This document shows, one piece after another, positions 160 through 51,480 of a stretch of DNA of 64,000 bases (the stretch's first letter is position 1; each line of letters begins with the position of its first letter). Origin of the DNA: Candidatus Delongbacteria bacterium (GTDB taxonomy: Bacteria > UBA4055). Both the position numbers and the translations under genes were made by a program. The notes beneath the pieces are model-generated. The model ran no database searches, had not been told where the DNA came from, and was given only the letters and a program-made list of their open reading frames with translations. The DNA lies in NCBI GenBank assembly GCA_016937995.1, contig JAFGVM010000016.1, forward strand, positions 18,570 to 82,569, read 5' to 3'.

Positions 160-232
160 TCTCTCACGGAGCCACAGAGAACACAAAGAAAAATTGAGGG
201 TTTATTATCCTAACGGGATATAACCCCCATAA

Positions 233-252
233 CCACAGGTTTCAACCTGTGG
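233..252. promoter_or_regulatory. Perfect 20-bp palindrome CCACAGGTTTCAACCTGTGG between the ATPase and the SBP-permease gene
   Basis: The reverse-complement is identical when read directly. It shares the GGTTTCAACC core with hairpins at 14460, 14623 and 19589. Confidence 0.5.
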
Positions 253-274
253 AGAAACAGTAAGGAACACAGGA

Positions 275-2728
275 ATGCGTTCCACAGTGAAAATAAATAT
301 GAAAAAACACTTAAACATATTACTCCTCCTTATCTTAACAGCGAACATCTTCGCTGAAGACAATATCATCTTAAAAGTTTTCAAACTGCCAGACCCAAAG
401 AGTAATGAAGCTTTTAACAGAGCTGATATGGCAGTTATCGAAGCATTCAAGCAGAAATATCCTGAGATTGAACTCAGATCATACTCAGGTATCGAACTTG
501 AGAATATGGAACTCGATGCAGGTCCATTAATGGCAATTGCAGGTGGTGTATCCCCTGACATTATTTATGTAAATTTCAGACAATCAGCTACATATATCGA
601 AAATGATTTCCTTTATCCACTGGATGAGTTCATAGAAAACATTTCAGAGGAAGAATTGAACGGCAGGATAGCAAAACCTGTCTGGCCAGTAGTAAAGAGG
701 AAGAAAACAGGTGACAAAGATAAGCATGTCTGGTGCATGCCTTATGAAACTCTTGTCCGTGTAATGCTTTACAGGAAAGATCTTTTCTATAAAGTAGGCC
801 TTGACCCTGAACAGCCTCCTAAAGACTGGAACGAACTGCTTCAGTATTCCAAGAGAATGACGATCCCTGAAGAAGGTACTTACGGACTATATTTAGCTTC
901 AGGACCTCAGGCTGCTTACGACTGGATTACTTATCTCTGGAGTGCAGGAGGAGATGCCGTAGTTCAGGATCCTGATACAGATGAATGGTATGCTTCATTC
1001 AATGGCCGTCCTGCTATTGATGCGATGAAATTCTACCTTGAACTTATTACTACGAAGTGGAAAGACAGTGAGGGTAACCATCAGCAGGGATTTGTAATAA
1101 GAGAAGGTAACTGGGGAAATCTCAGGGATGATGGCAAGCTCGGTATCCTGATGGGATATATGGATGACAAAAGGCTCGGTGGTGAACTTGACCCTAATCT
1201 CTGGGGAATTGCTCCTCCACCAAAGGGTCCAACCGGTCTTAGAGGTTCAGAGATCAACTGTAGAATGATGGGAATTTTCTCTGGTGCAGGAATTTCCAAC
1301 AATGGCGGTCTCGGTGATAGAGATCCTGAAAAAGTCAGGGATGCAGCATGGAAATATATCCGTTTCTACGACAGTGATGAAGCGAGAAAGATCAGACTTG
1401 AAGTCATGATCAACGCAGGATACGGTAGAATGCAGAATCCTCTTTATCTGAGAAAATATGGCTATGAAGAATATTTAAAATATACTCCACCTGACTGGCT
1501 TGCAACATTTGAAGAAGCTATTGAAAACGGTAAACCTGAACCATACGGAAAAAATTGTCAGAAGATATATGAGTTCATGACCTACCCGATCGAAAAATGT
1601 ATTTCACTGGAAGAGAAAGGTCAGCTTGGAGATACAGTCGAAGAAAAGGAGAAGAATATTTCTCAGATATTCGATGCTGCTGTTGAAAGAACTAATCAGA
1701 AAATGATAGGAAGGATCACTCCTGATGAAAGAAATTTCAGGAACAGAGTTGCAGTTTTCGTAGCAATATTCATTTTCATATTCTTTTCTATTGTTCTCTA
1801 TAGGGTCTGGAAAATATTTACACCTGATATGATAATTAAGACCCGTAAAAAGAATAATAAGATCATTTTCATTGCAACTTTATTACTTCTTCCGGCTCTG
1901 GGATCAATAATTCTATGGAAATACGTACCTATGATCATGGGTACTTTTATTGCATTTCAGAATTATAGCATAGTTGGAAATTCTGAGTGGGTCGGTCTTG
2001 CTAACTTTGCAGATGTTCTCTTTGATCCTGTCTGGTGGTCAGCTCTTGGAAAAACATTTTACTACATGTTCTTATCTCTTGTCTTAGGGTTTGTTCCACC
2101 GATATTCCTCGCTATCTTCCTACAGGAAGTCTCTCACGGAAAAATGTTCTATAGGATAATTTATTATATGCCTGCAGTGATCAGCGGAGTTATCGTTATC
2201 TATCTCTGGAAACTTCTATATGATCCTTCTGATGCCGGTGGATTGAATCAGATACTGCTTTCACTGGGGTTTGAAAAAAGCAGATGGCTGAAAGAGGAAT
2301 CTCTTGCAATGATATTAACCATTCTTCCTTCTATCTGGGCCGGATTAGGACCGGGTTCTCTACTATATCTTGCTGCACTGAAAGGAATCCCCGATGATGT
2401 CTATGAAGCTGCTGATATTGACGGAGCTGGTTTCTTTCATAAACTCAGACATATAGTTTATCCTGCTCTTAAGTCATTGATACTGATCCAATTCATAGCT
2501 GCTTTCATTGCTGCGACACAGCAAAGTGAATTCATCCTCGTAATGACTTTCGGTGGACCGAATGAGGCAACGAAAGTTGCAGATCTGCTGATATTCGAAA
2601 AAGCTTATTTATACTTAAACTTTGGAATAGCAACAACAATGGCCTGGATGCTGGGATTACTGTTAATGTTCGTAACAGTGTTCCAGATAAGGAAACTATC
2701 AAACATGGAGTTCAAAGCGAACAGGTAG
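275..2728 (+). CDS. Fused extracellular solute-binding protein (family 1) and MalF/UgpA-like ABC permease
   Basis: 817-aa ORF. N-terminal signal peptide, then about 480 aa SBP-like domain. C-terminal about 330 aa has multiple TM helices and the EAA loop EAADIDGAGFFHKLRHIVYPAL. Confidence 0.8.
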   Translation: MRSTVKINMKKHLNILLLLILTANIFAEDNIILKVFKLPDPKSNEAFNRADMAVIEAFKQKYPEIELRSYSGIELENMELDAGPLMAIAGGVSPDIIYVNFRQSATYIENDFLYPLDEFIENISEEELNGRIAKPVWPVVKRKKTGDKDKHVWCMPYETLVRVMLYRKDLFYKVGLDPEQPPKDWNELLQYSKRMTIPEEGTYGLYLASGPQAAYDWITYLWSAGGDAVVQDPDTDEWYASFNGRPAIDAMKFYLELITTKWKDSEGNHQQGFVIREGNWGNLRDDGKLGILMGYMDDKRLGGELDPNLWGIAPPPKGPTGLRGSEINCRMMGIFSGAGISNNGGLGDRDPEKVRDAAWKYIRFYDSDEARKIRLEVMINAGYGRMQNPLYLRKYGYEEYLKYTPPDWLATFEEAIENGKPEPYGKNCQKIYEFMTYPIEKCISLEEKGQLGDTVEEKEKNISQIFDAAVERTNQKMIGRITPDERNFRNRVAVFVAIFIFIFFSIVLYRVWKIFTPDMIIKTRKKNNKIIFIATLLLLPALGSIILWKYVPMIMGTFIAFQNYSIVGNSEWVGLANFADVLFDPVWWSALGKTFYYMFLSLVLGFVPPIFLAIFLQEVSHGKMFYRIIYYMPAVISGVIVIYLWKLLYDPSDAGGLNQILLSLGFEKSRWLKEESLAMILTILPSIWAGLGPGSLLYLAALKGIPDDVYEAADIDGAGFFHKLRHIVYPALKSLILIQFIAAFIAATQQSEFILVMTFGGPNEATKVADLLIFEKAYLYLNFGIATTMAWMLGLLLMFVTVFQIRKLSNMEFKANR

Positions 2729-11077: not shown

Positions 11078-11116
11078 ATATGTCACACTGAGCGGAGTCG
11101 AAGTGCGACTTTCAAA

Positions 11117-11151
11117 GTCATTGCGAGGATTTAATTAAATCCGTGGCAATC
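11117..11151 (+). repeat. GTCATTGCGAGGATTT-AATTAA-ATCCGTGGCAATC palindromic element
   Basis: Homolog of the 3234-3270 element in inverted orientation. Confidence 0.6.
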
Positions 11152-11165
11152 TTGTTTTTAAAAGA

Positions 11166-11188
11166 GGGGACGATAAGAAATCGTCCCC
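11166..11188. terminator. Hairpin GGGGACGATAAGAAATCGTCCCC (REP-like)
   Basis: 8-bp perfect stem. The same stem with a different loop occurs at 16960-16982. Confidence 0.55.
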
Positions 11189-11199
11189 TACAGTTTATT

Positions 11200-11251
11200 C
11201 CGGATGAACACATAGGTTCATCCCTACTTGGATATTGGATATTCCGTGTTG
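11200..11251. repeat. About 52-bp intergenic repeat, copy 1 (contains GATGAAC..GTTCATC hairpin)
   Basis: About 80 % identical to 20748-20800. Confidence 0.55.
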
Positions 11252-11289
11252 TGCCTGTTCCGATTTATCGGAAGATATTCATTTATTAA

Positions 11290-12030
11290 TTAATCTTTAA
11301 CGCATCTTACAGACACTCCCATTTCTTTATAAGGGAGTGTATATGTGTCACAGTTTATACTGTCGCAGTGTAAACTGTAATTGACAGGCCAATATTGCCC
11401 TCCGATATTCCAATAGGAACTTGTCCTGAAAACACCCTGATTATATAAATTAATATAGTATATACCTAATTTCATTCCACCTGGAAGGCCGGTGAAACCG
11501 CTTTCATTATCTGCATCGCTATTTGATATCCAGTGAGCATTTCCTGATTCCTTTAATTTACTTCCTGCTATTTCTTCACCACCAAGCCAGTTTATCAAAA
11601 TATCCCATTCCTCTTCAGTCGGAACATGCCATCCTTCGGGAGCGATATTCCGATTATCTTTTACTGCATACCAATTATAAAGCAATCCGTAAACTTCAGC
11701 TAAATTTGGATCATTATTATAATAACAATACGCACCATCTGTTGTATTGCTCCATTCGGTATTATCTGTCAGATTAGGAACAGGATCACCGTTCCGGTAA
11801 TGTGTTACTTTCAGATTTTCAGCCATCCATATCTGAGATCCTATCCCGATCGTAGCATAAACATTACCGTCAATATCCGTTACTGAACCGACTTCACCTG
11901 TATGATCGACAAAAGGATCAGGTTCAACTGTGATATCCTCATTTGTGCAATTTACAAGAAGAAGGATTATTATTGAAACAATGGTTATGTTAATAATATT
12001 CTTCATATTTTGTTCCTGTTTTAATACCAT
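11290..12030 (-). CDS. FISUMP-domain lipoprotein (paralog of 5898..6665)
   Basis: Motifs GLLYNWYAVKDNRNIAPEGWHVPTEEEW and GFTGLPGG. Lipoprotein-like signal with LVNC. Confidence 0.75.
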   Translation of the reverse strand: MVLKQEQNMKNIINITIVSIIILLLVNCTNEDITVEPDPFVDHTGEVGSVTDIDGNVYATIGIGSQIWMAENLKVTHYRNGDPVPNLTDNTEWSNTTDGAYCYYNNDPNLAEVYGLLYNWYAVKDNRNIAPEGWHVPTEEEWDILINWLGGEEIAGSKLKESGNAHWISNSDADNESGFTGLPGGMKLGIYYINLYNQGVFRTSSYWNIGGQYWPVNYSLHCDSINCDTYTLPYKEMGVSVRCVKD

Positions 12031-13852: not shown

Positions 13853-13931
13853 AATAAACATAATGCCGTAGGCATGAACCTATTCTAACACGGTACTTCA
13901 GTGCCGTGCATCCCACCCCCTAATTAACTCT

Positions 13932-13954
13932 AAAGTCCCTTAGGGACGACCTAC
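13932..13954 (+). repeat. REP-like hairpin AAAGTCCCTTAGGGACGACCTAC (left flank of Y1 transposase)
   Basis: Palindromic GTCCC-TTA-GGGAC core. Its reverse-complement closely matches 14416-14438. Confidence 0.65.
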
Positions 13955-13958
13955 AACA

Positions 13959-14462
13959 TTATATATTTTCTTCCTTATACTTTATTTCGTATTTCTCAGG
14001 AAATTCTATATATTCTTCCTTAAATGTTATTTTTTTGTTATGCGACTTCTGATTCTTAATATATTCTTTTACTCTAATAACTTGAGATTGAGAACAAGAA
14101 AATGCACCATATCCGTACTGCCAACTAAATTTTGTTTTATACCAACCTTTATCGTTAATAAATTTTGAAGATACTGCTTTTATTTCTTGCATGAACTTAG
14201 AGATCGAATAAGTAGAATGTAATGCCACCAATAAATGAACATGATCTGAAACATTATTAATTGATAAAGTATTACATTTCCTTTCTTTAGCTAAACCGGA
14301 TATATATTTATGTAATTCTTCATCATACTTTTCATTGAGGATTTTATCTCTGTTCTTTGTTGAAAATATACAATGGAGATAATTTTGTGTGTATGAGTTA
14401 GACATGATCTCTCTTTTAGGTCGTCCCGAGGGGACTTTGGTGTTTAATTTTTTTCTTCTCAC
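13959..14462 (-). CDS. IS200/IS605-family Y1 (HUH) transposase, REP-associated tyrosine transposase (RAYT)-like
   Basis: 167 aa. HuH motif HVHLLV and a catalytic tyrosine region WQYGYGAFS. Size and context (flanking palindromes) match RAYTs. Confidence 0.75.
   Translation of the reverse strand: MRRKKLNTKVPSGRPKREIMSNSYTQNYLHCIFSTKNRDKILNEKYDEELHKYISGLAKERKCNTLSINNVSDHVHLLVALHSTYSISKFMQEIKAVSSKFINDKGWYKTKFSWQYGYGAFSCSQSQVIRVKEYIKNQKSHNKKITFKEEYIEFPEKYEIKYKEENI
14416..14438 (-). repeat. REP-like hairpin TTAGGTCGTCCCGAGGGGACTTT (right flank, inverted copy)
   Basis: The reverse-complement AAAGTCCCCTCGGGACGACCTA nearly equals the 13932 element. Confidence 0.65.
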
Positions 14463-14504
14463 GGGGTTGAAACCACGTGTTATATTAGCTCGTCCTTACA
14501 GGAC
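14460..14504. repeat. Additional hairpins CACGGGGTTGAAACCACGTG and GTCCTTACAGGAC
   Basis: GGTTGAAACC palindromic core; GTCCT-TAC-AGGAC stem-loop related to the REP stem. Confidence 0.5.
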
Positions 14505-14622
14505 TTTTTTCTTATATTTCTCTTTTTCCTACTTTTGCTCGCTACGGAATGGAAAACGGAATGTAACTATGAGAGACGGACAACGAGGTTCGTTTATATT
14601 TGCCATACCCTTTTGTGAACAT

Positions 14623-14669
14623 GGGGTTTCAACCCCTTGCAAACTTCTTTTTTCTTTTGGCAAAAGAAA
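14623..14669. terminator. GGGGTTTCAACCCC hairpin plus perfect hairpin TTTTCTTTTGGCAAAAGAAAA downstream of the caspase-FGE gene
   Basis: Perfect inverted repeats directly 3-prime of the minus-strand stop at 14726. Confidence 0.6.
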
Positions 14670-14725: not shown

Positions 14726-16936
14726 CTAATAAGTCCTTGCAATACGAAACCCGAAGCCGTCGTACGCGTGGTCTGGGGCGTGGTAGTTGCGGTCTGAAAC
14801 TTCGCAGTAGAGGTCGTAGGAGTACCACGACCCGCCCCGGAGAACACGGGTCGAGCCCTCAGTGTACCAGTCCCAGCACCATTCCCACACATTTCCGCTC
14901 ATATCATATATTCCAAGTTCGTTCGGCTGTTTTGTAGCAACAGAATGAGTTTCACTTCCTGAATTACTACTATACCATGCCACATCGCTAACATTGTCAC
15001 TGCCTGAATATGTGTATCCTCTGCTCTGATTTCCGCCTTTTGCCGCATACTCCCATTCTGATTCTTTAGGCAAACGGTAGCCATTTGCTTTGAAATTACA
15101 GGATATGTTATCTCCGCTTCCGCTGTAACACTTCTGCAGACCTTCCATTTCACTCAGTTTGTTGCAGAATTCGACTGCTTCGTACCAGTTCACTTGTTCT
15201 ACAGGTTTATTGTCGCCTTTGAAGTTGCTCGGATTGTTACCCATCACAGCTTCCCATTGCGCCTGTGTTACTTCGGTTTTTCCGATGTAAAAATCGCCGA
15301 CAGTCACGCTGTGAACAGGCTTCTCGTCGCTTTCCGTTCCGCCTTCTACAAATACGAGATCCCCCAGAACTGAAGATCGTACCTTAGGAATAAACAGCAT
15401 TTTATATTTAGAAGCTAGCTTCTCATCTTTCTGGATCTTTGCATAATCTTCCCACTTTTTCTTGAATCCGGCAAGGTATTTCTGTTTCAATTCTTCACTT
15501 AGCGGTGAAGCGTTCATTTCCTCTATATCTTTGATATCTTTTTCAAACTGCGGTTTGAGTTTATCAAGTTCCGCCTGCTTATTTGTCTTGGCTTCTTTAA
15601 TTTTCTGATATACAGGTTCAAGGAGCGGCAGCAGTTTCTGTTTGACTTCGGAGTATTTTACAGAATTGACCTCGTTTCTCAGTCTTTCCAATTTTTCATG
15701 CTTAACGAAAATGTCTTCCGTCCTGTCAAGCTCATCTATTGCCTTATTATACTTGGCTTTCAACTCATTATAGACTCTTTCCTTATCTTTTGCCTCTCTT
15801 GCTTTTCTTTCTTCCGCTTCTTTTGCAGCTTTTATCTCCTCTTCCTGAGCCATTGCAAGTTTCCAGCTTGAAAGGTCTGTGTCGTCAACTTTTATGGTTT
15901 TATCCTGTATGACTTTTGGCTGATATACCGGAAGATTTTCTTTCAGATACTCTTTATTCTCATTGAATTTCTTTATTTTTGCAAGTTCGGCCTCAGAATC
16001 GTACTGGAAGATAGGTTTTGCGCCTTCTTTCTTTTGTTCTGCGACTACCTTTTCGGCATTGTATCTGAAGAGCATGAAAGGTTCATACGAAATTCCGCCT
16101 TCGGTCTGATATACGGGATTCATTGAGGGTAATCCTTGAGTTTTTGTGTAGTCTCCGAGCCTGTTGTCTGCAAATTGAACAAGGTCTTCGATCGTTATTA
16201 TTCCATCTTTGGAGAAATCAATGTCCATGGCTGAATTGGGTGAATCGTTGAGGTAGGTCATGTAGTATGTAAAAGCTCCTCTGCCTTTGTCCTTTCTTTC
16301 GAATGACTGCTGGCCTTCAGAAGCTGCGTAAATTGTTTTCACTATGGTTTTGTCGGATTTCTTTGATTGAGCAACGAGTTCTGTGTCTATAGTTGAATTT
16401 ACTTTTATACCTTTGCCTGTGTTGAGCTTTGAAGCTATTTTTTTATTGGCACCCTTGCCTTCCTTTTTGATAAAGTTCCTGCAGGCATCAACGATCATAA
16501 CCACTTCAGAAGGGCTATTTTCCTTTAATATCTGCTTTATTTCCTCAACTGAAATACTTCCGTATTTTTCGGGATTATCAATATTCCCGTCCGCTCCAAG
16601 CAGATAGTTCTTACCGTCACTTCCGCCGATCCCATGACCTGAAAAGAAGAAAACAACTTCGTCGCCTTTCTGGATTCCTCTTGCGAAAGCGGTGACATTT
16701 GAGAATAGATCCGAGGCTGTGAGCAGTTCTCCGTAGCCTGCGTCTTTTAACGCCCAGATATGATCGTCCTGAAATCCGCCCTGCATTAAAAGGTCTTTCA
16801 TTGCGTCAACATCGCCGTGACAGGCTTCGAGTGAGGCAAATGCCTTGTAGTTCTGTACTCCGACAAGCATTGCTGTCCGTTTCGCGGATAGGCTAATAAT
16901 AAATGCTAATATTAGGATGGAAAATATTTTATTCAT
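14726..16936 (-). CDS. Secreted caspase-like (peptidase C14) protein with central coiled coil and C-terminal FGE-sulfatase (SUMF1) domain
   Basis: Signal peptide MNKIFSILILAFIISLSA. The ATG at 16936 is preferred over the upstream TTG at 16951, and a GAGGA RBS precedes it. Caspase His in FFFSGHGIGG and Cys in MIVDACRNF. About 190 aa E/K-rich coiled coil. FGE motifs RVLRGGSWYS and GFGFR. Confidence 0.8.
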   Translation of the reverse strand: MNKIFSILILAFIISLSAKRTAMLVGVQNYKAFASLEACHGDVDAMKDLLMQGGFQDDHIWALKDAGYGELLTASDLFSNVTAFARGIQKGDEVVFFFSGHGIGGSDGKNYLLGADGNIDNPEKYGSISVEEIKQILKENSPSEVVMIVDACRNFIKKEGKGANKKIASKLNTGKGIKVNSTIDTELVAQSKKSDKTIVKTIYAASEGQQSFERKDKGRGAFTYYMTYLNDSPNSAMDIDFSKDGIITIEDLVQFADNRLGDYTKTQGLPSMNPVYQTEGGISYEPFMLFRYNAEKVVAEQKKEGAKPIFQYDSEAELAKIKKFNENKEYLKENLPVYQPKVIQDKTIKVDDTDLSSWKLAMAQEEEIKAAKEAEERKAREAKDKERVYNELKAKYNKAIDELDRTEDIFVKHEKLERLRNEVNSVKYSEVKQKLLPLLEPVYQKIKEAKTNKQAELDKLKPQFEKDIKDIEEMNASPLSEELKQKYLAGFKKKWEDYAKIQKDEKLASKYKMLFIPKVRSSVLGDLVFVEGGTESDEKPVHSVTVGDFYIGKTEVTQAQWEAVMGNNPSNFKGDNKPVEQVNWYEAVEFCNKLSEMEGLQKCYSGSGDNISCNFKANGYRLPKESEWEYAAKGGNQSRGYTYSGSDNVSDVAWYSSNSGSETHSVATKQPNELGIYDMSGNVWEWCWDWYTEGSTRVLRGGSWYSYDLYCEVSDRNYHAPDHAYDGFGFRIARTY

Positions 16937-16959
16937 ATAAACATTCCTCAATTAGTTTT

Positions 16960-16982
16960 GGGGACGAAAAGAATTCGTCCCC
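16960..16982 (-). terminator. Hairpin GGGGACGAAAAGAATTCGTCCCC
   Basis: Same stem as 11166-11188. It lies in the 50-bp gap 3-prime of the AAA ATPase gene. Confidence 0.6.
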
Positions 16983-16986
16983 TACA

Positions 16987-19488: not shown

Positions 19489-19508
19489 GCAACAAGGGGA
19501 TATATCCC
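19489..19508. repeat. Perfect palindrome CAAGGGGATATATCCCCTTG
   Basis: 20-bp inverted repeat in the lipoprotein/ltaE intergenic region. A GGTTTGAAACC motif follows at 19589. Confidence 0.5.
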
Positions 19509-19611
19509 CTTGTTCGGTATACCGATGCTACTACTACACCTGGATTCCTCCCGATTTATCGGGAAGAATGACGGATTATAAAGGGAACGGTTTGAAACCC
19601 TCCCCTACGTA

Positions 19612-26995: not shown

Positions 26996-28318
26996 CTAAT
27001 ACAGTGTTATATAATTGTCTATTTCCCACTTATGTACCTGGGAAGAATATTTTTGCCATTCTTTCTCTTTTGCATCAATGAACTGCTTTGCAATATGCTT
27101 ACCAAGACCATCAAGTATTACAGGATCTCTTTTTAAGTAATGTAATGCCTGGCTAAGGGTTGCTGGAAGTTTGCCGATCTTAAATTTTTCTTTCTCCTTT
27201 TCTGAAAAATCAAAAATATTTCCAACTACAGCATCAGGTGGATTGATCTTATTTTTGATACCGTCTAAACCTGCTTTCAAACAAGCTGCGATCGCGAGAT
27301 AAGGATTTGCTGATGGATCAGGAACTCTGAACTCAATTCTTGTAGAACTGCCTCTTTTATCAGGTATCCTGATCAAAGGACTTCTATTCTTTAACGACCA
27401 TGCAATATTTACCGGGGCTTCATATCCGGGCAGTAATCTTTTATACGAATTTACAAGAGGATTTGTAATTGCAACAATAGCTTTAGCATGTTCAAGAATA
27501 CCACCGATATAGTATAACGCTGTCTGGCTTAACTGATATTTACGTTTTGGATCATAAAAAGCATTCTTACCATTCTTGAATAATGATTGGTTCAAGTGCA
27601 TCCCCGAACCATTGATTCCATAAACAGGCTTAGGCAGAAAAGTAGCTAATAAACCGAACTGTTTAGCTACTTTTCGTACAATAAAGGTAAATGCTGTAAT
27701 ATTATCAGCTGTTTTGAGAGCACAGTCATATTTAAAATCAATTTCATGCTGACCGGCAGCTACTTCGTGATGTGAAGCTTCAATTTCGAATCCAAGGTTT
27801 TGTAATAATATAACTATTTCTTTTCTTACATCATCACCTTTATCTAATGGAGCAAGATCAAAATATCCTGCGTTATCGTGTATATCTAAAGATGTCTCCC
27901 CTTTCTCATCTAAGTTGAAGAGAAAAAATTCAGGTTCAGGTCCAACATACATTTCAAATCCCATATCTTTTGCCTCACGAACAACTTTTTTCAAAGCATA
28001 TCTTGGACAACCCTCAAATGGTCTCTCATCAGTAGTGTATACGTCACAAAGCAACCTTGCAGTTTTATTCCGGTCACCACCCCATGGAAAAATAAAGAAA
28101 GTGCTCGGATCAGGTTTTAATAACATATCGGATTCTTCGATCCTTGTAAAACCGTCAATTGAAGAACCATCAAACATTATTTCACCGTTCAAAGCTTTTT
28201 GGAACTGACTTTTTGGTACTTCTACATTTTTTTGAATACCAAGTATATCAATGAATTGCAGTCTTAAAAATTCTACATTTTCTTTTGACAATTTTTCTAA
28301 TACCTGTTTTTTGTTCAT
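26996..28318 (-). CDS. glnA: Glutamine synthetase (type I-like, 440 aa)
   Basis: GS beta-grasp and catalytic motifs (GPEPEFFLF, NGSGMHLNQSLF). Confidence 0.85.
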   Translation of the reverse strand: MNKKQVLEKLSKENVEFLRLQFIDILGIQKNVEVPKSQFQKALNGEIMFDGSSIDGFTRIEESDMLLKPDPSTFFIFPWGGDRNKTARLLCDVYTTDERPFEGCPRYALKKVVREAKDMGFEMYVGPEPEFFLFNLDEKGETSLDIHDNAGYFDLAPLDKGDDVRKEIVILLQNLGFEIEASHHEVAAGQHEIDFKYDCALKTADNITAFTFIVRKVAKQFGLLATFLPKPVYGINGSGMHLNQSLFKNGKNAFYDPKRKYQLSQTALYYIGGILEHAKAIVAITNPLVNSYKRLLPGYEAPVNIAWSLKNRSPLIRIPDKRGSSTRIEFRVPDPSANPYLAIAACLKAGLDGIKNKINPPDAVVGNIFDFSEKEKEKFKIGKLPATLSQALHYLKRDPVILDGLGKHIAKQFIDAKEKEWQKYSSQVHKWEIDNYITLY

Positions 28319-28330
28319 GATCAGCTCCTT

Positions 28331-29461
28331 TTATATAATTTTCATTAATTCATATACAAATATTTTCATCCATTTTCTTCCTGACTGATAAGATTGGATC
28401 CTGTCTGAATTTACTTTAATTATCTTAAAATTATGGTCAGCGATATTTTTTTCAAAATTTTCGATAGCTTTTTCCCCGCTGTTATCTGAGAATCCAAGTA
28501 ATATTCTCCCGTTATCCTTTAGATGATCACCTGACTGTAACAGGAATTCAACCAACAAAGTTTGATCTTTATCATTTAAAGCTAGTTCACTTCTATTATT
28601 TGCACGTGCATCGATCCATGGTGGATTAAATACTATCAAATCGAAATTCTTATCAATGTTGTTGAAAAGATAACCCGGATTAAGATTAATTAATTTATTT
28701 TTCCCTTCTTTATCATCTTGTAATTTTCTAAGATTTAGTTCTGAAGATGCAATAGATTCCGGCAAAATGTCAGTAAAATATATTTCCGATCTAACCAGTT
28801 GATCATATAAAATATATGATAATACACCTGAACCACAACCCATATCAAGAACCGATAGATTACATTTTTTTGAAACTCCGGATATAGATTTTTTAAAAAG
28901 ATTATAGGTTTCCTGAGATTTTGGAAGAAGAACATTTATTCCGGTTCTAAATTCATTTCCAACCGCTTCTACAAATATACTTTCTGAGAGTTTATTTTGT
29001 AGGTCACGATAGAACTTAAATGGGATAATAAAATTTTTATCATTATGCTTAATTGTAGAACCGCAAAAATAAATCAGGTCATTGATCTCTGTTCCATCAT
29101 CGTAAGTGATGATCTTTTCATTTTTACCGACTATCAGAATATGATTCAAGACATTCTTCTTTTTTGTTTCGAAGAGATATTTCTTATTCCTGTTGTTGTC
29201 TTTTGATTTTATTTCTGATCTTTGATCGTGAGAAATAAACTCATCTATCTTTCTTTCTACAAAATCATATAATTTTATTATGTCTTTTTGAGAGGCTTGT
29301 TCAATTAATATAAAATGTCCGTTCTTAATTTCTTTCGAAATTTTGTTCAAATTTTGAATACTTTTATCATTATATATCTTGAGTGAAGTAGAGTCACTGA
29401 TGAATTCTTTAAATAGATCAGGTACAATTATCTCTTTGCCGTTTTTTAGAGAAACAATCAC
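28331..29461 (-). CDS. Class I SAM-dependent N-methyltransferase (small MTase domain, NPPW motif) with unknown N-terminal domain
   Basis: Motif I VLDMGCGSGVLS. Motif IV LIVFNPPW. Confidence 0.6.
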   Translation of the reverse strand: MIVSLKNGKEIIVPDLFKEFISDSTSLKIYNDKSIQNLNKISKEIKNGHFILIEQASQKDIIKLYDFVERKIDEFISHDQRSEIKSKDNNRNKKYLFETKKKNVLNHILIVGKNEKIITYDDGTEINDLIYFCGSTIKHNDKNFIIPFKFYRDLQNKLSESIFVEAVGNEFRTGINVLLPKSQETYNLFKKSISGVSKKCNLSVLDMGCGSGVLSYILYDQLVRSEIYFTDILPESIASSELNLRKLQDDKEGKNKLINLNPGYLFNNIDKNFDLIVFNPPWIDARANNRSELALNDKDQTLLVEFLLQSGDHLKDNGRILLGFSDNSGEKAIENFEKNIADHNFKIIKVNSDRIQSYQSGRKWMKIFVYELMKII

Positions 29462-29544
29462 CTTAATTTTCTTGTTGAATATTAATCCTTAATCATCAAA
29501 ATATAAACATTTTCAAAAATGAAAACAATACAAATAAACTTCTT

Positions 29545-30084
29545 TTATTTCTTGTACTTGATCACTCCTTCAATCAAAAGTATTTCACCGAAATAAATTC
29601 GGTGATAATCATTTGCATTATAATTTTCATCTATTTTATTGTCTAAAAAATTCTTTGGTCTAATATCATCCCAATAGATCTTTTTACATTCTATGATCAA
29701 TTCTGCTTCATCAAATCCTGGAGAAGATATTTTTTTCGAAGAAATGACTGTAAGTTCAGATTTGTTGATTTTATTTTCGTCTTTTCCACTCACAGTTCCA
29801 AGATATTTAAGTTTGTCATTATACTTATCAGGAAAAGCTGTTAATGTAAATGAATCATATTTTTCCATGTATTTAAAAGTATGTCTTGTAGGTCTTACTA
29901 CGACCTGAACGAATGGTTTGTTCCACATAACCCCGATGCTTCCCCATCCCACTGTCATAGTATTATAATCTGCGGATTCATAACTCCCTGATGTTAGCAG
30001 CATCCATTTCTTTGACCATAATTTTATAAGATCTGAATTGAAATCATTCGGCTCAATTATAATTCTTTCCATTTTCATCTCCAC
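29545..30084 (-). CDS. Flavin reductase-like domain protein (putative)
   Basis: Weak resemblance to the PF01613 pattern (..LLTSGSYESADYNTMTVGWGS..). Confidence 0.4.
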   Translation of the reverse strand: MEMKMERIIIEPNDFNSDLIKLWSKKWMLLTSGSYESADYNTMTVGWGSIGVMWNKPFVQVVVRPTRHTFKYMEKYDSFTLTAFPDKYNDKLKYLGTVSGKDENKINKSELTVISSKKISSPGFDEAELIIECKKIYWDDIRPKNFLDNKIDENYNANDYHRIYFGEILLIEGVIKYKK

Positions 30085-30144
30085 TTTTTATATTATACAA
30101 AATATAGTAAGAAGTTGAGGTAAAGTAAACGATATATAACATAA

Positions 30145-30594
30145 ATGGGATCACAGATGAAAATTATAGCTCAGAGAGTATCAACTTCAAAAGTAATAGT
30201 TAATGGTGTAATAATTTCAGATTTAGGATACGGTCTTCTTTTATATGTTGGATTTTCAAAAACTGATACCATGAAAGATGTTGAATTCCTGGCCGATAGA
30301 ATATTAAATCTCAGAATTTTTGAAGATGAGACAGGTAAAATGAACTTATCAGTAAATGAAGTAAATGGTCAAATAAATATTATTTCTCAATTCACATTAT
30401 ATGCAGATACAAAAAAAGGAAGAAGACCTGGATTTTCTGATGCAATGGAACCTGAAAAAGCAAAAGAACTTTATGAATATTTTATCAAATTATTAAAATT
30501 TTCCAAGCTGATTGTGGGTGAGGGTTCTTTCGGTGATTTTATGAAAATAGAATCTACAAACGAAGGTCCCGCTACTTTTATACTTGAAAAATAA
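30145..30594 (+). CDS. dtd: D-aminoacyl-tRNA deacylase
   Basis: 149 aa. Conserved ISQFTLYAD..KGRRPGF C-terminal motif. Confidence 0.85.
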   Translation: MGSQMKIIAQRVSTSKVIVNGVIISDLGYGLLLYVGFSKTDTMKDVEFLADRILNLRIFEDETGKMNLSVNEVNGQINIISQFTLYADTKKGRRPGFSDAMEPEKAKELYEYFIKLLKFSKLIVGEGSFGDFMKIESTNEGPATFILEK

Positions 30595-30714
30595 AATTGA
30601 TTTTAATTTTCGGAATATCTTAATAATTTTTTAGTCTATTGACTTTAAGATATCCATCGATTATCTTTTTAATAAATTTGATGCAGTATAAAAATGAATA
30701 GATAGGAATCAATC

Positions 30715-31350
30715 ATGATATTTGATGCAATATTAATTATCCTTTTATATATGTCCTTAAAAAAAGCCGGTGAAAAAGGATGTACTGATGATTTAAACTT
30801 TTCTTTAGCATTTTTAATTTCTGTACGCTTTGCTGGTTCTTTTTATACTACACTGAGTGGTATTTTACAAAATTTTATCACAGCTTCTGAAAATATAACA
30901 ATTTATGCTTCATATGTGATCTTATTAGCTGTTGTTTTGTATTTTTATAATATCATTTTAGGCAAAAATATTATTGAATTCGGGAAAAAAATTCCAAAAA
31001 AAACCGGAACTTTATTAACTTATATTTTTTCTGTATTCAAAACAGTTATCATTTATTCAGTGATATTCTCGTTCCTGTATACTATTCCTCTTATACAATC
31101 TATAAAAGAGAAAAATCCCATCCTTATTAAACCTTTTTCATACCAACTGACTTATGGTGTGATCGGACATAATAGTGAACAGGTTCTGAGTAGATTAAGA
31201 ACAAATCTTCTTGAGTTAAATCTTGGTTTTTTTGAAAAACAAAAGGAAATTCATAAAAAAGGAGCCAATAAATCTTTAGATGCAGTTAAACACCATCAGG
31301 ATTTAAAAGATTTTGTTAAAGATGATGATAAAAAGGAAAAAGAAGAATAA
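30715..31350 (+). CDS. Hypothetical membrane protein with K/E-rich tail
   Basis: Four to five predicted TM helices. No recognisable motif. Confidence 0.35.
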   Translation: MIFDAILIILLYMSLKKAGEKGCTDDLNFSLAFLISVRFAGSFYTTLSGILQNFITASENITIYASYVILLAVVLYFYNIILGKNIIEFGKKIPKKTGTLLTYIFSVFKTVIIYSVIFSFLYTIPLIQSIKEKNPILIKPFSYQLTYGVIGHNSEQVLSRLRTNLLELNLGFFEKQKEIHKKGANKSLDAVKHHQDLKDFVKDDDKKEKEE

Positions 31351-31351
31351 T

Positions 31352-33640
31352 TTAGAATTTTAAAGGTATTGAAATTGTAAACTTACTACCCTTACCATAT
31401 TTACTTTCAATCCATATCTTCCCATTATGTTTTTTTACAAATTCTTCACAAAGTAACAAACCTATTCCCGTACCTTTTTCATTCGATGTGCCCATAGTTA
31501 CAAAATGCTTATCCATTGAAAACAATTTCTTTTGATCTTTTTTCTTTATTCCAACTCCATCATCATGTACAGAGATAGTTGTACCCTGTTTATTCTTTGA
31601 AGATGAAATTGTTATATTACCGTCTTTATTAGTGAATTTTATAGAATTTGTTATCAAATTTCGCAATACAGTTCTAATCATATTTTTATCAGCATATATT
31701 CCGAGATTTTTTTTCATTTTGATCTTCATTGAAATATTTTTCATTTTCGCGCTTTGATTCAACAATAAAAATGTGGACTCAACAATTTCATATAAATTGA
31801 AATTTACGGGTTGAAACTGTTTTTTCCCACTTTGACTTCTTGACCATTCAAGTAAATTCTCTATTAGCTTTAAAATATGTTTTGACGATAATCTTATAGT
31901 ACTGATATATTCTACTCTTTTGGTCTCGGATAATTCTTTATAATAACTGGCTAGAATTTCCGATGTAGTATATAGTATTGAAAAAGGATTTTTTAGATCA
32001 TGTGCTAAAATATTAAAAAACCTGTCTTTTGAAGCATTTATTCTTTGCAATTCCTTTCTGGAATCCCTCAATTTCTCATTTGATTCTATCAGTTGAATAT
32101 TTTTCAATTTATATATTTCATTTTCTTTTTCTTTTTTCTCATTTTCATGTTTTAAGTACATATTAAATATCTCATTTTGCTTTTGAATATTTAATATTTC
32201 GTCATGAATATTTATAAATTTTTTATAACATTCTAACGATTTTTTGTATTTTCTCTGATCAGAATATATTTGGGACATTAGTTCATAATCATCCTGCAAT
32301 ACGTCTTTATGATCATATTTTTTAGCAATATTAAAACTCTTTTTTGAATACTCTTCTGCGTGTTTATAATCGTTTATTGTAAAATATAGTTTCGCTATGT
32401 TTATATAGGTTGTTGACAAACTTTTCTTTTCACCAAGTTCTTCAATTATTTTCATTGATTTATGCAGATGTTCTAAAGCTTTATCATGATCATTTAGTTT
32501 AAGATAAAGCATTCCAATACTTTTAAGAGTTTCAGCAACTCCAGTTCTATCAGCATCTTTAGTCCTAATATTTAAAGATTTTTTGTAATAATCCAAAGCC
32601 TTTTTAAAATCTTTCTTATTTTGATAAATATTCCCAAGGTTGTTATAAGAATCAGATATCCCTCTTCTGCTATTCATTTTTATTCTAAGATCGATTGCAT
32701 TGCTTTCATACTCAAGAGCTTTATCGTAATCTACAAGTTTATTAAACACGCTCCCAATATTACTTAGCGAATTGGCAATAGTAAGCAAATTATTAGATCT
32801 CTCTTTAATTTTGAGAGATTTAAACTGATATTTAAGAGCTTCAGAGTATAGTGCCATATCATAGTAAACTAATCCCAGATTATTTAAAACAAATGAAGAT
32901 TCTTTGATTAATTTTAAATCTTCAAATATCTTTAAAGCTTGATGACCAGTCTCCAATGCTTTCTTGAATTCACCTTTCTTATGATAAACAACCATCAAAT
33001 TATTTAAAGATGAACAAATCGATTTTTTAGATTCTTTATTCTTTTTTTTCAATTCGAAAGAATCATTCAGATATTTCAAAGCTTTTTTGTATTCACTTTG
33101 ATAATAATAATTTAGACCGATCCTATTTAAAGTTTGGGTTATTCCTTTGGATAATTTAAGCTCTTCTCGAATTTTAAGAGCTTTTTTTAAGTATTTCATA
33201 CTATCATTGTAATTTTCAATGGAAGCATAAGAATAGCCTATCGAATGATATAATATCGACAATACTCTCTTGTTACTTTTAGGTGTGATCTTTAAAGCTT
33301 GTAGAAAATAATCCAATGCCGATAAGAAATCATATTGCTCAATCTTAAGTAAACCAAGATTCTTAAGCAACCCAGGTTCTTTTAGTTTAAGGTCTTCTTT
33401 TTTAATAATATTTAAAGCTTTAATATAATGTTTTTCTGCTTCAGCATAATTTTTCTGCTCAAAATAAATGCCACCATAATTTATCAATGACACAGCTTCA
33501 TCGTGCTTATTTTTATTTTGAATACTTAATTTTAAAGTATTTTGAATTTCTTGAATTGATTTATCATACTTATGTTCAAAATAATTTTCTTGAGTATCAA
33601 ATTTATTTTTGTTTTTCAAATTCATAATCTGATCTATCAA
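31352..33640 (-). CDS. Cytoplasmic TPR-repeat sensor histidine kinase (no receiver, no TM)
   Basis: About 12 TPR units, a coiled coil, H-box FFNILAHDLKNPF and G2 box GTGIGLLLCEEF. Confidence 0.8.
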   Translation of the reverse strand: MIDQIMNLKNKNKFDTQENYFEHKYDKSIQEIQNTLKLSIQNKNKHDEAVSLINYGGIYFEQKNYAEAEKHYIKALNIIKKEDLKLKEPGLLKNLGLLKIEQYDFLSALDYFLQALKITPKSNKRVLSILYHSIGYSYASIENYNDSMKYLKKALKIREELKLSKGITQTLNRIGLNYYYQSEYKKALKYLNDSFELKKKNKESKKSICSSLNNLMVVYHKKGEFKKALETGHQALKIFEDLKLIKESSFVLNNLGLVYYDMALYSEALKYQFKSLKIKERSNNLLTIANSLSNIGSVFNKLVDYDKALEYESNAIDLRIKMNSRRGISDSYNNLGNIYQNKKDFKKALDYYKKSLNIRTKDADRTGVAETLKSIGMLYLKLNDHDKALEHLHKSMKIIEELGEKKSLSTTYINIAKLYFTINDYKHAEEYSKKSFNIAKKYDHKDVLQDDYELMSQIYSDQRKYKKSLECYKKFINIHDEILNIQKQNEIFNMYLKHENEKKEKENEIYKLKNIQLIESNEKLRDSRKELQRINASKDRFFNILAHDLKNPFSILYTTSEILASYYKELSETKRVEYISTIRLSSKHILKLIENLLEWSRSQSGKKQFQPVNFNLYEIVESTFLLLNQSAKMKNISMKIKMKKNLGIYADKNMIRTVLRNLITNSIKFTNKDGNITISSSKNKQGTTISVHDDGVGIKKKDQKKLFSMDKHFVTMGTSNEKGTGIGLLLCEEFVKKHNGKIWIESKYGKGSKFTISIPLKF

Positions 33641-35331
33641 ATATCTTCACTGGATTTTACACAATTCTTACCTGTGTTCTTTCCATAATACAATGCTTCG
33701 TCTGCCTTATTAATACTATAATCGATGTCCATGATCCTGTCGTAGACATGTACTCCGAATGTCATTGTTATCTTCAACTTAATATCACGATAATAAAATA
33801 TCTCATTCTCAATTTTTTTTCTTATTTTTTCTGCTACCAGCATTCCACCTTCAAGACTTGTTTTTGGCATGAGGAAAATAAATTCTTCTCCACCCCAGCG
33901 ACCTATATTATCCTGCTTTCTTAAAACTGATCTCATCAAATTGGCTAAATTAACCAGTACAAAATCTCCGCAGTCATGTCCGTAGTTATCGTTGAACCCT
34001 TTAAAATTATCTATATCAGATATCATTACTACAAATGACTCATTACTTCTTTCATATTTAAGGGCTTCATATTTTATTTTATCCAAAATATCTCTACGGT
34101 TCGATAATCTTGTCAAAGGATCTGTTCTGGCCAAAATATCCAGTTTTAAATAAGCTTCAGTAAGCTCTTTATTCTTTTTGTTTATTGTATCGTTAGCTCT
34201 TGTTAGATCCTTAATATATTTTGCAAGCTCAACATTTTTTAATCTATAAATTTCAGCTTCTTTTTCCTTTTGTTCAGAAATATATTTTGACTGTATTTCC
34301 GCTATATTACCTGATAATTCACCATAAACTGATTCATTGATTTTTGAATATTCTTTTAAACTCTCATAAGCTTTTTTATATTCTTTCATTTGTGAGTACA
34401 ACTCAGCAAATATTTCATAACTTTCCTGTATAACATCTTTGGAACCTATTTCTTTAGATTGCTCTAAAGCTATCTTTAGATATTTTTCGGCTTTTTTATA
34501 ATCTTTAAGTTTCATATATGTTCTGGCTGTTTCATTAGAAGTATTAGCATGGTTATACTTCATATTCAGATCTTCAGAAATTTTTAAAGCTTTCAAAAAA
34601 TTTTCCAAAGCAGTTTTATTGTCACCTTTATCTCTATAGATTATACCAAGATTATTATAAATTGAAGTATGTTCCTTTATATTATCGGTCTTGTCATACA
34701 ATTCCTTTGCTTTGAAATAATAATCTAATGCTTTATCATAATCTAGCAAAGCGGAGAATAGATTGCCTATATTATTGTATGATTTAGCTATAGCAACATC
34801 ATCTTTCAATTGTTTTCTGATCTTAAGTGATCTTTGATAGTGCTCAAGTGCTTTATTATAGTTTTTTAGTCTGTAGTAAATATTACCGATAGTGTTGAGA
34901 GAATCAGATATTCCCTTTTTATCACTGATCTCTTCTCTGATTTTCAACGACTTTAGATAGTACTCCAAAGCTTGATCATAATTACTCAATCTGAAATTAA
35001 CTTCACCGATATGGTTAAGAAAATTAGCCTGTTTTTTATCGTTTTTATTATTTTTAGATAATTCCAAACCCGTTTGATAATATATCAGAGCTTTATCATA
35101 CTCACTTTTTTCTCGGTATATATCACCTATCTTAACATAGATATCTGACTTTTTTACTTTGGTCAATATTTTATGACTAAGTTCAAGTGCCTGAAGATTA
35201 TAATCAAGACATTTATCAAGTGAAATATTCTGATAAATATCTGCAAGCTTATTTAGTATATCATATTTTTCTTTGCCTGAAGTTTTGCTTAAAAATTCCT
35301 CCAGCTCAGTAACTTCTTTCATACTGTTCAC
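33637..35331 (-). CDS. TPR-repeat diguanylate cyclase (GGDEF domain, GGEEF active site)
   Basis: TPR units plus RWGGEEF and DIDNFKGFND motifs. Overlaps the HK gene by 4 bp. Confidence 0.8.
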   Translation of the reverse strand: MNSMKEVTELEEFLSKTSGKEKYDILNKLADIYQNISLDKCLDYNLQALELSHKILTKVKKSDIYVKIGDIYREKSEYDKALIYYQTGLELSKNNKNDKKQANFLNHIGEVNFRLSNYDQALEYYLKSLKIREEISDKKGISDSLNTIGNIYYRLKNYNKALEHYQRSLKIRKQLKDDVAIAKSYNNIGNLFSALLDYDKALDYYFKAKELYDKTDNIKEHTSIYNNLGIIYRDKGDNKTALENFLKALKISEDLNMKYNHANTSNETARTYMKLKDYKKAEKYLKIALEQSKEIGSKDVIQESYEIFAELYSQMKEYKKAYESLKEYSKINESVYGELSGNIAEIQSKYISEQKEKEAEIYRLKNVELAKYIKDLTRANDTINKKNKELTEAYLKLDILARTDPLTRLSNRRDILDKIKYEALKYERSNESFVVMISDIDNFKGFNDNYGHDCGDFVLVNLANLMRSVLRKQDNIGRWGGEEFIFLMPKTSLEGGMLVAEKIRKKIENEIFYYRDIKLKITMTFGVHVYDRIMDIDYSINKADEALYYGKNTGKNCVKSSEDI

Positions 35332-35367
35332 CTCTGCAATATTCTTTTAATATTTTTGAATACAATA

Positions 35368-36498: not shown

Positions 36499-36637
36499 TT
36501 TTCACCACCATTATTAGTTTTAATATTTTAATTTTATTTTATACCTGTCAACCTAACTTCTATTACAAAATACTCAACTTGTACACCATTGTCAAACTAA
36601 TAAATATTTCAATTCACTATTTTGCATTGCAATTTTT

Positions 36638-37924: not shown

Positions 37925-38030
37925 TTACCAGCTCCATTGAACTAACTTATCATCTCACTGTTTATGATTCAAAATATTATTCTAAATACTTTATATCTGA
38001 ACTAATAATCGAGCAAATTTTTGTCTATTT

Positions 38031-51405: not shown

Positions 51406-51480
51406 TCGGGGCGAGAAGATTCGAACTTCCGACCCCCTGCTCCCAAGGCAGGTGCGCTAACCGGACTGCGCTACGCCCCG
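51406..51480 (-). tRNA. tRNA-Pro (anticodon TGG), CCA not encoded
   Basis: The reverse complement folds as CGGGGCG acceptor stem, D-arm GCGCAGTCCGGTTAGCGC, anticodon stem-loop CCTGC-CTTGGGA-GCAGG, and T-arm GGTTCGAATCT. Confidence 0.85.

Follow-up and report, generated by a model that had tools for sequence, protein, structure and literature searches.

Repetitive extragenic palindromic (REP) sequences and the REP-associated tyrosine transposases (RAYTs) are the textbook case of a transposase that a host has kept along with short mobile hairpins. The REPtron, in which a RAYT (TnpA-REP) is joined to REPs or to REPINs (REP doublets forming hairpins), was reportedly described by Nunvar (2010), Bertels and Rainey (2011), Ton-Hoang (2012), and Messing (2012; PDB 4er8). 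To our knowledge, all described cases of REP and RAYT combine class 2 enzymes with REPs tagged by GT[AG]G. Systems of the general kind in which inverted hairpin repeats flank a Y1 enzyme are already known. The locus considered here is a Y1 gene between inverted hairpins in a stretch of 64,000 nucleotides (the window) from a Candidatus Delongbacteria bacterium (contig JAFGVM010000016.1, positions 18,570 to 82,569).

Behavior reminiscent of RAYTs has also been described within the IS200 clade: IS200 Group 3, labeled "RAYT-like," has no duplicates and no members on plasmids, and is associated with abundant flanking 16-mers (21 occurrences) (Bertels 2017, PMC5581495). We read positions 13860-14507 of the window as a compact REPtron-like cassette, consisting of one gene for a 148-amino-acid (aa) Y1 HUH single-stranded DNA (ssDNA) endonuclease and two inverted cognate modules of about 95 nt each, and put the probability of this reading at roughly 0.6.

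The Y1 gene and its flanking modules

The gene and the motifs of its product are as follows:

13959 to 14405, minus strand: coding sequence (CDS) of a 148-aa Y1 HUH endonuclease, by Pfam, NCBIfam, identity to an NCBI protein, alignments, and AlphaFold2 (AF2) with Foldseek
13959 to 14405, minus strand: motifs of the same CDS, namely HuH (H55-V56-H57), W95-Q96, Y115, Q119, H122, and C-terminal FKEEYIEF

A first-pass annotation of the window had placed a Y1 transposase in the minus-strand open reading frame (ORF) ending at 13959, and the protein indeed matches Pfam Y1_Tnp (PF01797) at 98.6 bits (cutoff 23; E = 3.4e-28), over profile positions 3-121 of 121. The HuH and tyrosine motifs are likewise present on alignment. 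H55-V56-H57 and Y115 match IS608 TnpA, the solved structure closest in sequence (E = 4e-9), where DHVH corresponds to DHIH and KEYIKNQ to KQYIENQ; the catalytic residues H64, H66, Y127, and Q131 of that enzyme are matched by the HuH motif, Y115, and Q119. Across 14 homologues H55, H57, W95, Q96, Y115, Q119, and H122 are invariant, while the conserved HH of the tyrosine motif is HN in the window protein (the second H replaced by N). The annotated strand was right and the annotated length, 167 aa, was not: the upstream GTG reads through the right hairpin. The true CDS begins at the ATG at 14405, in agreement with the start of all homologues, and its 148-aa product is 100% identical to an NCBI-annotated protein (P0001) from a Candidatus Delongbacteria metagenome-assembled genome (MAG). 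The exact protein is recorded on one contig per assembly, and the identical protein and locus were found in an independent assembly (L001).

The AF2 model of the protein (predicted local distance difference test, pLDDT, 85; predicted template modeling score, pTM, 0.76) places Y115 within a helix (residues 106-117); confidence is low for the C-terminal extension, residues 121-148 (pLDDT 58-67). When the model was searched with Foldseek, the top 30 matches were all Y1 transposases, the best of them 2vjv (E = 2.2e-9). The TnpA proteins of IS608, ISDra2, and IS200 came first, and TnpA-REP of E. coli (4er8) came 30th.

Taken together, DHVH, WQ, YIKNQKSHN, the conserved C-terminal FKEEYIEF, and the length of 148 aa make the enzyme fit, as far as sequence goes, TnpA-Y1 subclass 1.2 of Quentin et al. 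(2018, PMC6006769), within the IS200 clade. The NCBIfam equivalog transpos_IS200 scores above its cutoff (76.8 bits vs 55), the equivalog REP_Tyr_transpos far below (30.1 vs 80), and the tyrosine motif has the form Y---Q rather than Y---NP. Structurally, 4er8 ranks only 30th. The enzyme is not a canonical RAYT (TnpA-REP, class 2), and the comparison with RAYTs drawn in the first-pass annotation is one of function by analogy, not of family membership. The 64 kb contain one copy of the Y1 gene, and tnpB is absent beside it.

Each side of the gene carries one module of about 95 nt with three hairpins (H1, H2, and H3). The modules are inverted with respect to each other, with H3 closest to the gene, ending 5 nt past the stop codon in the left module and 11 nt ahead of the ATG in the right one. 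R1 below is a covariance model of the module; it was trained on one hairpin type, and both window modules were included in the training.

13860 to 13956, plus strand: left module, H1-H2-H3, H3 nearest the gene (R1 77.8 bits, E = 6e-13, sequence in the training set; ssDNA fold z = -3.9)
13863 to 13888, plus strand: H1 of the left module, ATGCC-GTA-GGCAT with the 3' tail GAACCTATTCTAA (sequence; helix 1 covariation)
13889 to 13908, plus strand: H2 of the left module, CACGGTAC-TTCA-GTGCCGTG (sequence; helix 2 covariation)
13932 to 13953, plus strand: H3 of the left module, AAA-GTCCC-TTA-GGGAC-GACCTA, that is, AAAGTCCCTTAGGGACGACCTA, the left palindrome of the first-pass annotation
14414 to 14507, minus strand: right module, H1-H2-H3 (R1 83.3 bits, E = 5.5e-14, sequence in the training set; DNA fold z = -2.8)
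14417 to 14438, minus strand: H3 of the right module, AAAGTCCCCTCGGGACGACCTA, an inverted copy of AAAGTCCCTTAGGGACGACCTA
14460 to 14479, minus strand: H2 of the right module, CACGTGG-TTTCAA-CCCCGTG, with one mismatch in the stem
14486 to 14507, minus strand: H1 of the right module, AAAGTCCTGTAAGGACGAGCTA, a third copy of the palindrome, whose tail runs on as ATATAA

In its general form the module begins with H1 (a 5-bp stem and a 3-nt loop) and a tail of the type GAnCTAtttGTAA, continues with H2 (an 8-bp hairpin rich in G+C and variable in sequence) and a spacer, and ends with H3, AAA-GTCCC-NNN-GGGAC-GACCTA. H1 and H3 share one orientation within a module. Folded as ssDNA, each module gives the expected hairpins (z = -2.8 to -3.9), and at the level of H3 their inverted similarity is 84% over 31 nt. 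The near-identical inverted palindromes that had been noticed around the gene are well beyond chance: 2 matches were found at no more than 3 mismatches, vs 0.00 expected from 100 shuffles. GT[AG]G does not occur at the foot of H1 or H3; the 4 nt ahead of H2 are CTAA or ATAA in the window and GTAG or GTAA in relatives. The CGTC-tagged REPs of Di Nocera (2013), considered on account of the CGTC within TAGGTCGTCCC, were set aside, as those have stems of 8-9 bp starting from A-T pairs and CCA tails.

All three helices of the module are borne out by the alignment of its copies. In an alignment (A1) of 19 module sequences from the window and other genomes, the left module among them, 97.6% of cells are paired and 14 of 18 pairs show compensatory changes, as much as none of 500 shuffles attained; controls in which the alignment was slid gave 34-49% pairing. 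Compensatory changes are found in all five pairs of helix 1, and six of the seven pairs of helix 2 covary (H1 and H3 were in part selected for by the way the sequences were collected; H2 was not). The H2 of the left module is identical to that of two loci of the Delongbacteria genome GLR157 (L028 and L085).

The arrangement in other genomes

Homologous genes are flanked in the same way. Within a gene-first sample of 80 metagenomic homologues, a strict motif (the hairpin followed by GA.CTA) was found near the gene in 9 of 80 loci. The narrow association that this would imply was overturned by a search for inverted repeats that presupposed no motif, and by R1, both of which turned up variant stems and tails. 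The former compared the 200 nt upstream with the 200 nt downstream of each gene (z > 4.9) and found significant flanking inverted repeats in 37 of the 66 loci whose flanks were long enough. In every case these repeats were small hairpins carrying a conserved tail at the 3' end (...CTGTTTGTAG, ...CATGTTTATAG, ...ATTATTATAG), and their stems covary between lineages: GCTCC/GGAGC, ATCCC/GGGAT, ACCGC/GCGGT, GCCGC/GCGGC. R1, run over 81 loci, gave 111 matches at E <= 0.01 in 47 of them, which is a lower bound on the association because the model was trained on one hairpin type. A plus-strand module ends shortly ahead of the start codon (typically by 3-15 nt) at about 30 loci, and a minus-strand module begins right past the stop codon at about 26; 15 loci have both, and several have tandem arrays of modules on one side of the gene.

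Two homologues deserve mention. One, 68% identical and from another Delongbacteria genome (L172), has the full inverted arrangement of three hairpins, with covarying stems (ATCCC/GGGAT) and with neighbors different from those in the window (UvrD, UPF0158, Sua5, and DnaE). The other is from a cultured bacterium, Flavobacterium rivuli DSM 21788 (L182:9780-10600), where inverted two-hairpin modules flank a Y1 homologue lying inside a heme-biosynthesis cluster, between the genes for coproporphyrinogen oxidase and δ-aminolevulinic acid dehydratase (ALAD). At a further locus (L133:4975-5054), a gene of subclass 1.2 has, about 1.5 kb away, a strong match to the Flavo-1 RNA (76.5 bits) that is probably unrelated to it.

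The hairpin can also be followed independently of the gene. A scan with AAAGTCCNNNNNGGACGASCTA over 185,579 species-representative genomes, the host genome not among them, gave 95 matches in 90 stretches. The fifth stem pair was complementary, completing the hairpin, in 83 of the 95 (25% would be expected by chance), and the other 12 are probably chance background. Stop-free ORFs of at least 600 nt span 70% of the bases yet hold just 7 of the 83 hairpins, an evident bias toward intergenic DNA. Different phyla share the core hairpin AAAGTCCC-N3-GGGACGACCTA: its hosts are mainly Bacteroidota, with Ignavibacteriota, Patescibacteria, Planctomycetota, Acidobacteriota, Verrucomicrobiota, and Delongbacteria besides. 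The Bacteroidales MAG SMBSF39 has 19 exact copies, often at contig ends; the MAG GMC9 has 7, Flavilitoribacter nigricans has 5, and about 12 species of Chryseobacterium have 1-2 apiece. At about 13 loci a Y1 homologue directly adjoins the hairpin, oriented as in the window. The REP/RAYT arrangement proposed in the first-pass annotation can therefore be retained insofar as it refers to inverted hairpins and, in other genomes, a dispersed intergenic repeat; the part that assigned the enzyme to the RAYT family cannot. Carriage by phages was considered and dropped, as the 2 matches on viral contigs were both chance matches in coding DNA that form no hairpin. On the JAIOSH01 contigs of SMBSF39 (L005, L013, L030, L074, and others), a 34-nt palindrome, TTATGGACAGACACTAATTAGTGTCTGTCCATAA, brackets copies of the module, and the two together look like a composite high-copy element.

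Modules also occur as pairs from which the gene is missing. Two contigs of GLR157 carry an element of about 190 nt made up of two facing inverted modules with no gene between them; H2 has the sequences seen in the window, and the flanks differ between the two loci. A REPIN-like or MITE-like derivative of the cassette would be expected to have just this form (MITE, miniature inverted-repeat transposable element).

The position of the cassette itself is not conserved. To its left is a NUDIX gene whose orthologues (90% and 86% identical) are followed by neither module nor Y1 gene within 100-150 nt past the stop codon, and synteny on the other side is kept in one of them. To its right is a gene for a protein combining caspase and formylglycine-generating enzyme (FGE) domains, and the genes next to its orthologues (73-76% identical) on the downstream side are Fic or HRDC, with no modules. 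Since neither set of orthologues has the cassette beside it, the cassette occupies a variable junction. The right-hand neighbor (14726-16951, minus strand) encodes 741 aa, with an N-terminal caspase (Peptidase_C14), a long charged linker, and a C-terminal FGE-sulfatase domain, of which NCBI annotates just a 511-aa version. What lies downstream of it varies among Delongbacteria: Fic, HRDC, or the cassette.

These observations bear on an alternative in which the locus is an autonomous, minimal insertion sequence (IS) of the IS200/IS605 family: the unit of about 650 bp would transpose as a whole, the modules would be its ends, and the pairs without a gene would be its MITEs. In its favor, transpos_IS200 scores above cutoff and the nearest structures are those of genuine IS transposases; two Delongbacteria genomes have the unit in different gene neighborhoods, close relatives lack it at the orthologous flanks, and GLR157 has derivatives without the gene that keep the same ends. 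Against this, the ends of IS200/IS605 elements are hairpins in the same orientation on one strand (PMC6006769), whereas the window modules are inverted, and arrays of modules on one side of the gene, present at several loci, are as in REPtrons. The window has a single copy of the gene and no tnpB; subclass 1.2 is low-copy, copies within a genome being about 36% identical (PMC6006769), and most protein clusters of the window enzyme are found on 1-3 contigs. On balance we think the minimal IS unlikely.

Several points weigh against the REPtron-like reading. The window shows no local proliferation: it holds just the two modules that flank the gene and weak fragments, and a filter-free scan of the 64 kb with R1 returned nothing beyond these two (83 and 78 bits) and the fragment at 204-316 listed below. 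No R1 match was found at 34 of the 81 homologue loci. There is no clean empty site among the NUDIX and caspase-FGE orthologues, and because their other flank differs or the contig ends, the ends of the cassette and its target site are not readable. The dispersed copies in SMBSF39 lie between copies of another palindrome of 34 nt and may have been mobilized by a different route. Finally, subclass 1.2 is listed as lacking REPs (Quentin et al. 2018, PMC6006769). Here, inverted modules accompany the window gene and homologues in 47 of 81 loci; they contradict the published description of the subclass, not the membership of the protein in it.

The weaker traces in the window are these:

14620 to 14639, plus strand: degenerate extra copy of H2, CATGGGGTTTCAACCCCTTG, in the opposite orientation to H2 of the right module and probably left over from another module (86% over 22 nt as inverted repeat I2; R1 not significant)
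204 to 316, plus strand: borderline diverged module fragment, ATCC-TAACG-GGAT ... CCACAGG-TTTCAA-CCTGTGG, intergenic (R1 21.7 bits, E = 0.037)

One might take two modules and a few weak fragments in 64 kb, together with the change of HH to HN in the protein and the mismatch in the H2 stem on the right, as the remnants of an old insertion no longer active, its hairpins persisting as terminators only. Such a relic would hardly be expected to keep an intact ORF with all catalytic residues and two complete modules (78-83 bits), or to turn up again, protein and locus alike, in an independent assembly (L001), and we consider it very improbable. The same scan of the 64 kb gives no support to the idea, raised in the first-pass annotation, that the gene is the source of a local family of intergenic repeats: there are no dispersed copies in the window, and the hairpins cited in support of the idea are a separate matter, as described in the next section.

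Acido-Lenti-1 and the rest of the window

Half of the right module resembles a known family of Rfam:

14460 to 14505, plus strand: sub-threshold match to Rfam Acido-Lenti-1 (RF01687), the reverse complement of H1 and H2 of the right module (30.7 bits vs a gathering score of 37)

The E value of the match is 1.8e-4 for a search of 2.5 kb and 0.0047 for one of the 64 kb. Related modules exceed the gathering score at L018 (42.0) and, beside a Y1 gene, at L003 (37.2) and L136 (44.1). Weinberg et al. (2010, PMC2864571) described Acido-Lenti-1, in Acidobacteria and Lentisphaerae, as a multi-copy candidate small RNA (sRNA) whose function was not known, and a 2026 preprint still terms the function unknown. 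The literature search brought up no paper linking the family to a Y1 enzyme, and searching the literature for the literal sequence brought up unrelated primers only. The two hairpins of Acido-Lenti-1 and their 12-nt linker equal H2 and H1 of the module on the opposite strand, and both are multi-copy and intergenic. They differ in H3, which is missing from the Rfam model, and in the published account of the family as an sRNA, which makes no connection to a Y1 gene.

The modules might accordingly be structured RNAs of the Acido-Lenti-1 class, acting as a 5' leader, as a 3' terminator or stabilizer, or as an sRNA in trans, their tie to the Y1 gene then being regulatory. The Rfam match over half of the right module, with the three loci above the gathering score, speaks for RNA, as does the strong covariation. 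So, too, do the outward-facing H1 hairpins, which are followed by T-rich runs and give terminator-like scores in excess (4 vs 0.6 expected). A scan for Sigma-70 promoters found no enrichment (4 sites vs 4.3 expected). Yet covariation is expected equally of DNA hairpins read by an HUH enzyme. No single direction of transcription fits modules that occur in both orientations relative to the gene, and on the upstream side the Rfam strand is antisense to it. The G-T wobbles in A1 lie on the strand opposite to the Rfam model. The Rfam threshold is reached at 1 of 20 gene-first loci, few because many modules lack H2, and across phyla the module is tied tightly and specifically to a DNA-cutting enzyme. 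A role as RNA therefore seems to us quite improbable; the strand of the wobbles and the presence of modules both ways round beside the gene are better accounted for by an element at the level of DNA.

A separate occurrence of the hairpins is found in Chryseobacterium taichungense (L018:5428-5600), in a 60-nt tandem array where the hairpin GTCC...GGACGACCTA alternates with the hairpin GGATAGGAT...ATCCTATC. The array passes the gathering score of Acido-Lenti-1, and the 8 kb examined contain no Y1 gene.

As to the rest of the window, hairpins of the form GGGGACG...CGTCCCC had been grouped with the palindromes and said, along with them, to be scattered over 11-21 kb. Neither statement survives closer inspection. 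Just 5 hairpins of the kinds named occur in the whole 64 kb, and 3 of them are inside the cassette. The GGGGACG...CGTCCCC hairpins themselves (GGGGACGAWAAGAAWTCGTCCCCTACA, at 11166-11192 and 16960-16986) are a separate family of two intergenic copies, identical at 25 of 27 nt and not followed by T-runs. They share with the module only the 7-mer GGGACGA, are not matched by R1, and are absent from 178 related loci.

Between convergent genes, at 11090-11290, are several unrelated hairpins (for example, GGATGAAC-ACATAG-GTTCATCC), none of the module family, and a perfect 24-nt palindrome, AACAAGGGGATATATCCCCTTGTT, lies between two minus-strand genes at 19491-19514. The region 28000-38000 is AT-rich (GC 0.27-0.30 vs 0.33-0.40 elsewhere) and may be an island or a polysaccharide-type cluster. 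A tRNA gene is found at 51406-51480 on the minus strand (Rfam, 67 bits).

Proposed action and comparison with known systems

What the REPtron-like cassette does, as regards binding, cleavage, a single-stranded substrate, and the identity of the moving unit, we infer by analogy with IS608 TnpA and TnpA-REP of E. coli. A dimer of the enzyme would recognize, on ssDNA, the hairpins H1 and H3 with their 5-bp stems and 3-nt loops, and would also read conserved bases beside them, AAA 5' of the hairpin and G-A-N-C-T-A 3' of it. It would cut near the hairpin by means of Y115 and a metal bound by the HuH motif, and the ends would then be rejoined. Modules or inverted pairs of modules, and occasionally the whole cassette, might thereby be excised or copied. 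Since H1 and H3 have the same orientation, like the left-end and right-end hairpins of IS200/IS605, a single module or an inverted pair would be the likeliest substrate. The expected outcome would be inverted pairs without a gene (REPIN-like or MITE-like) and local arrays, with the gene staying at low copy number.

A broader proposal has, in our estimate, an even chance of being right: that subclass 1.2 enzymes are the partners of widespread hairpin-module repeats (GTCCC-N3-GGGAC-GACCTA and its covarying variants) that cross phyla among the Fibrobacterota-Chlorobiota-Bacteroidota (FCB) and Planctomycetota-Verrucomicrobiota-Chlamydiota (PVC) groups, Acidobacteriota, and Patescibacteria; that Acido-Lenti-1 is half of an ssDNA recognition module and not an RNA gene; and that this is a second, independent partnership like that of REPIN and RAYT, arisen inside the IS200 clade. 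In the literature searched, the repeats of subclass 1.2, the three-hairpin module, the constancy of the hairpin across phyla, and the overlap with Acido-Lenti-1 appear to be unreported.

If the proposal is true, Y1 enzymes were domesticated by, or entered into partnership with, miniature hairpin elements more than once, or earlier than thought, as was raised for IS200 Group 3 (Bertels 2017, PMC5581495). An orphan Rfam family still annotated as a noncoding RNA (ncRNA) of unknown function would gain an explanation at the level of DNA. The hairpin, nearly identical across phyla, offers a simple substrate for biochemistry, and Flavobacterium rivuli DSM 21788 a culturable host. For annotation, the gene would best be called neither classical IS200 nor classical RAYT, and the surrounding 650 bp treated as one unit.

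The comparison with known systems may be put as follows. With REPtrons the locus shares a low-copy Y1 HUH gene placed between inverted short palindromic repeats, a repeat that is intergenic and, in some genomes, multi-copy, and inverted pairs lacking the gene. It differs from them in an enzyme of the IS200 clade rather than class 2 (Y---Q, with REP_Tyr_transpos below cutoff), in a repeat unit that is a module of three hairpins, two of them small and in the same orientation, without GT[AG]G at H1 or H3, and in a hairpin sequence that is near-constant across phyla, whereas classical REPs are specific to lineages.

The TnpA proteins of IS200/IS605 elements (IS608, ISDra2, and IS200; PDB 2vjv, 2xm3, and 2f4f) are closest in sequence and fold, and their catalytic H-u-H, Y, and Q align with those of the window enzyme. 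By analogy, both would use small imperfect hairpins with short flanking guide bases, and H1 and H3 agree in orientation within a module as the left-end and right-end hairpins do. Unlike those elements, the window locus has inverted rather than direct ends, one copy, and no tnpB, and its protein has, in the predicted model, a C-terminal extension specific to the subclass.

To subclass 1.2 (PMC6006769) the enzyme is joined by DHVH, WQ, Y---Q--H(H), its 148 aa, the C-terminal FKEEYIEF, and low copy number. It departs from it in having N for the second H and, like most of the homologues sampled, inverted hairpin modules on its flanks. The hosts encountered here include Delongbacteria, Patescibacteria, Planctomycetota, Acidobacteriota, and Ignavibacteriota, among others. 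Lastly, IS200 Group 3 (PMC5581495) behaves as the window system does. The paper gives neither sequence nor structure for its repeats, and, compared by description, IS200 Group 3 and subclass 1.2 may be one and the same.

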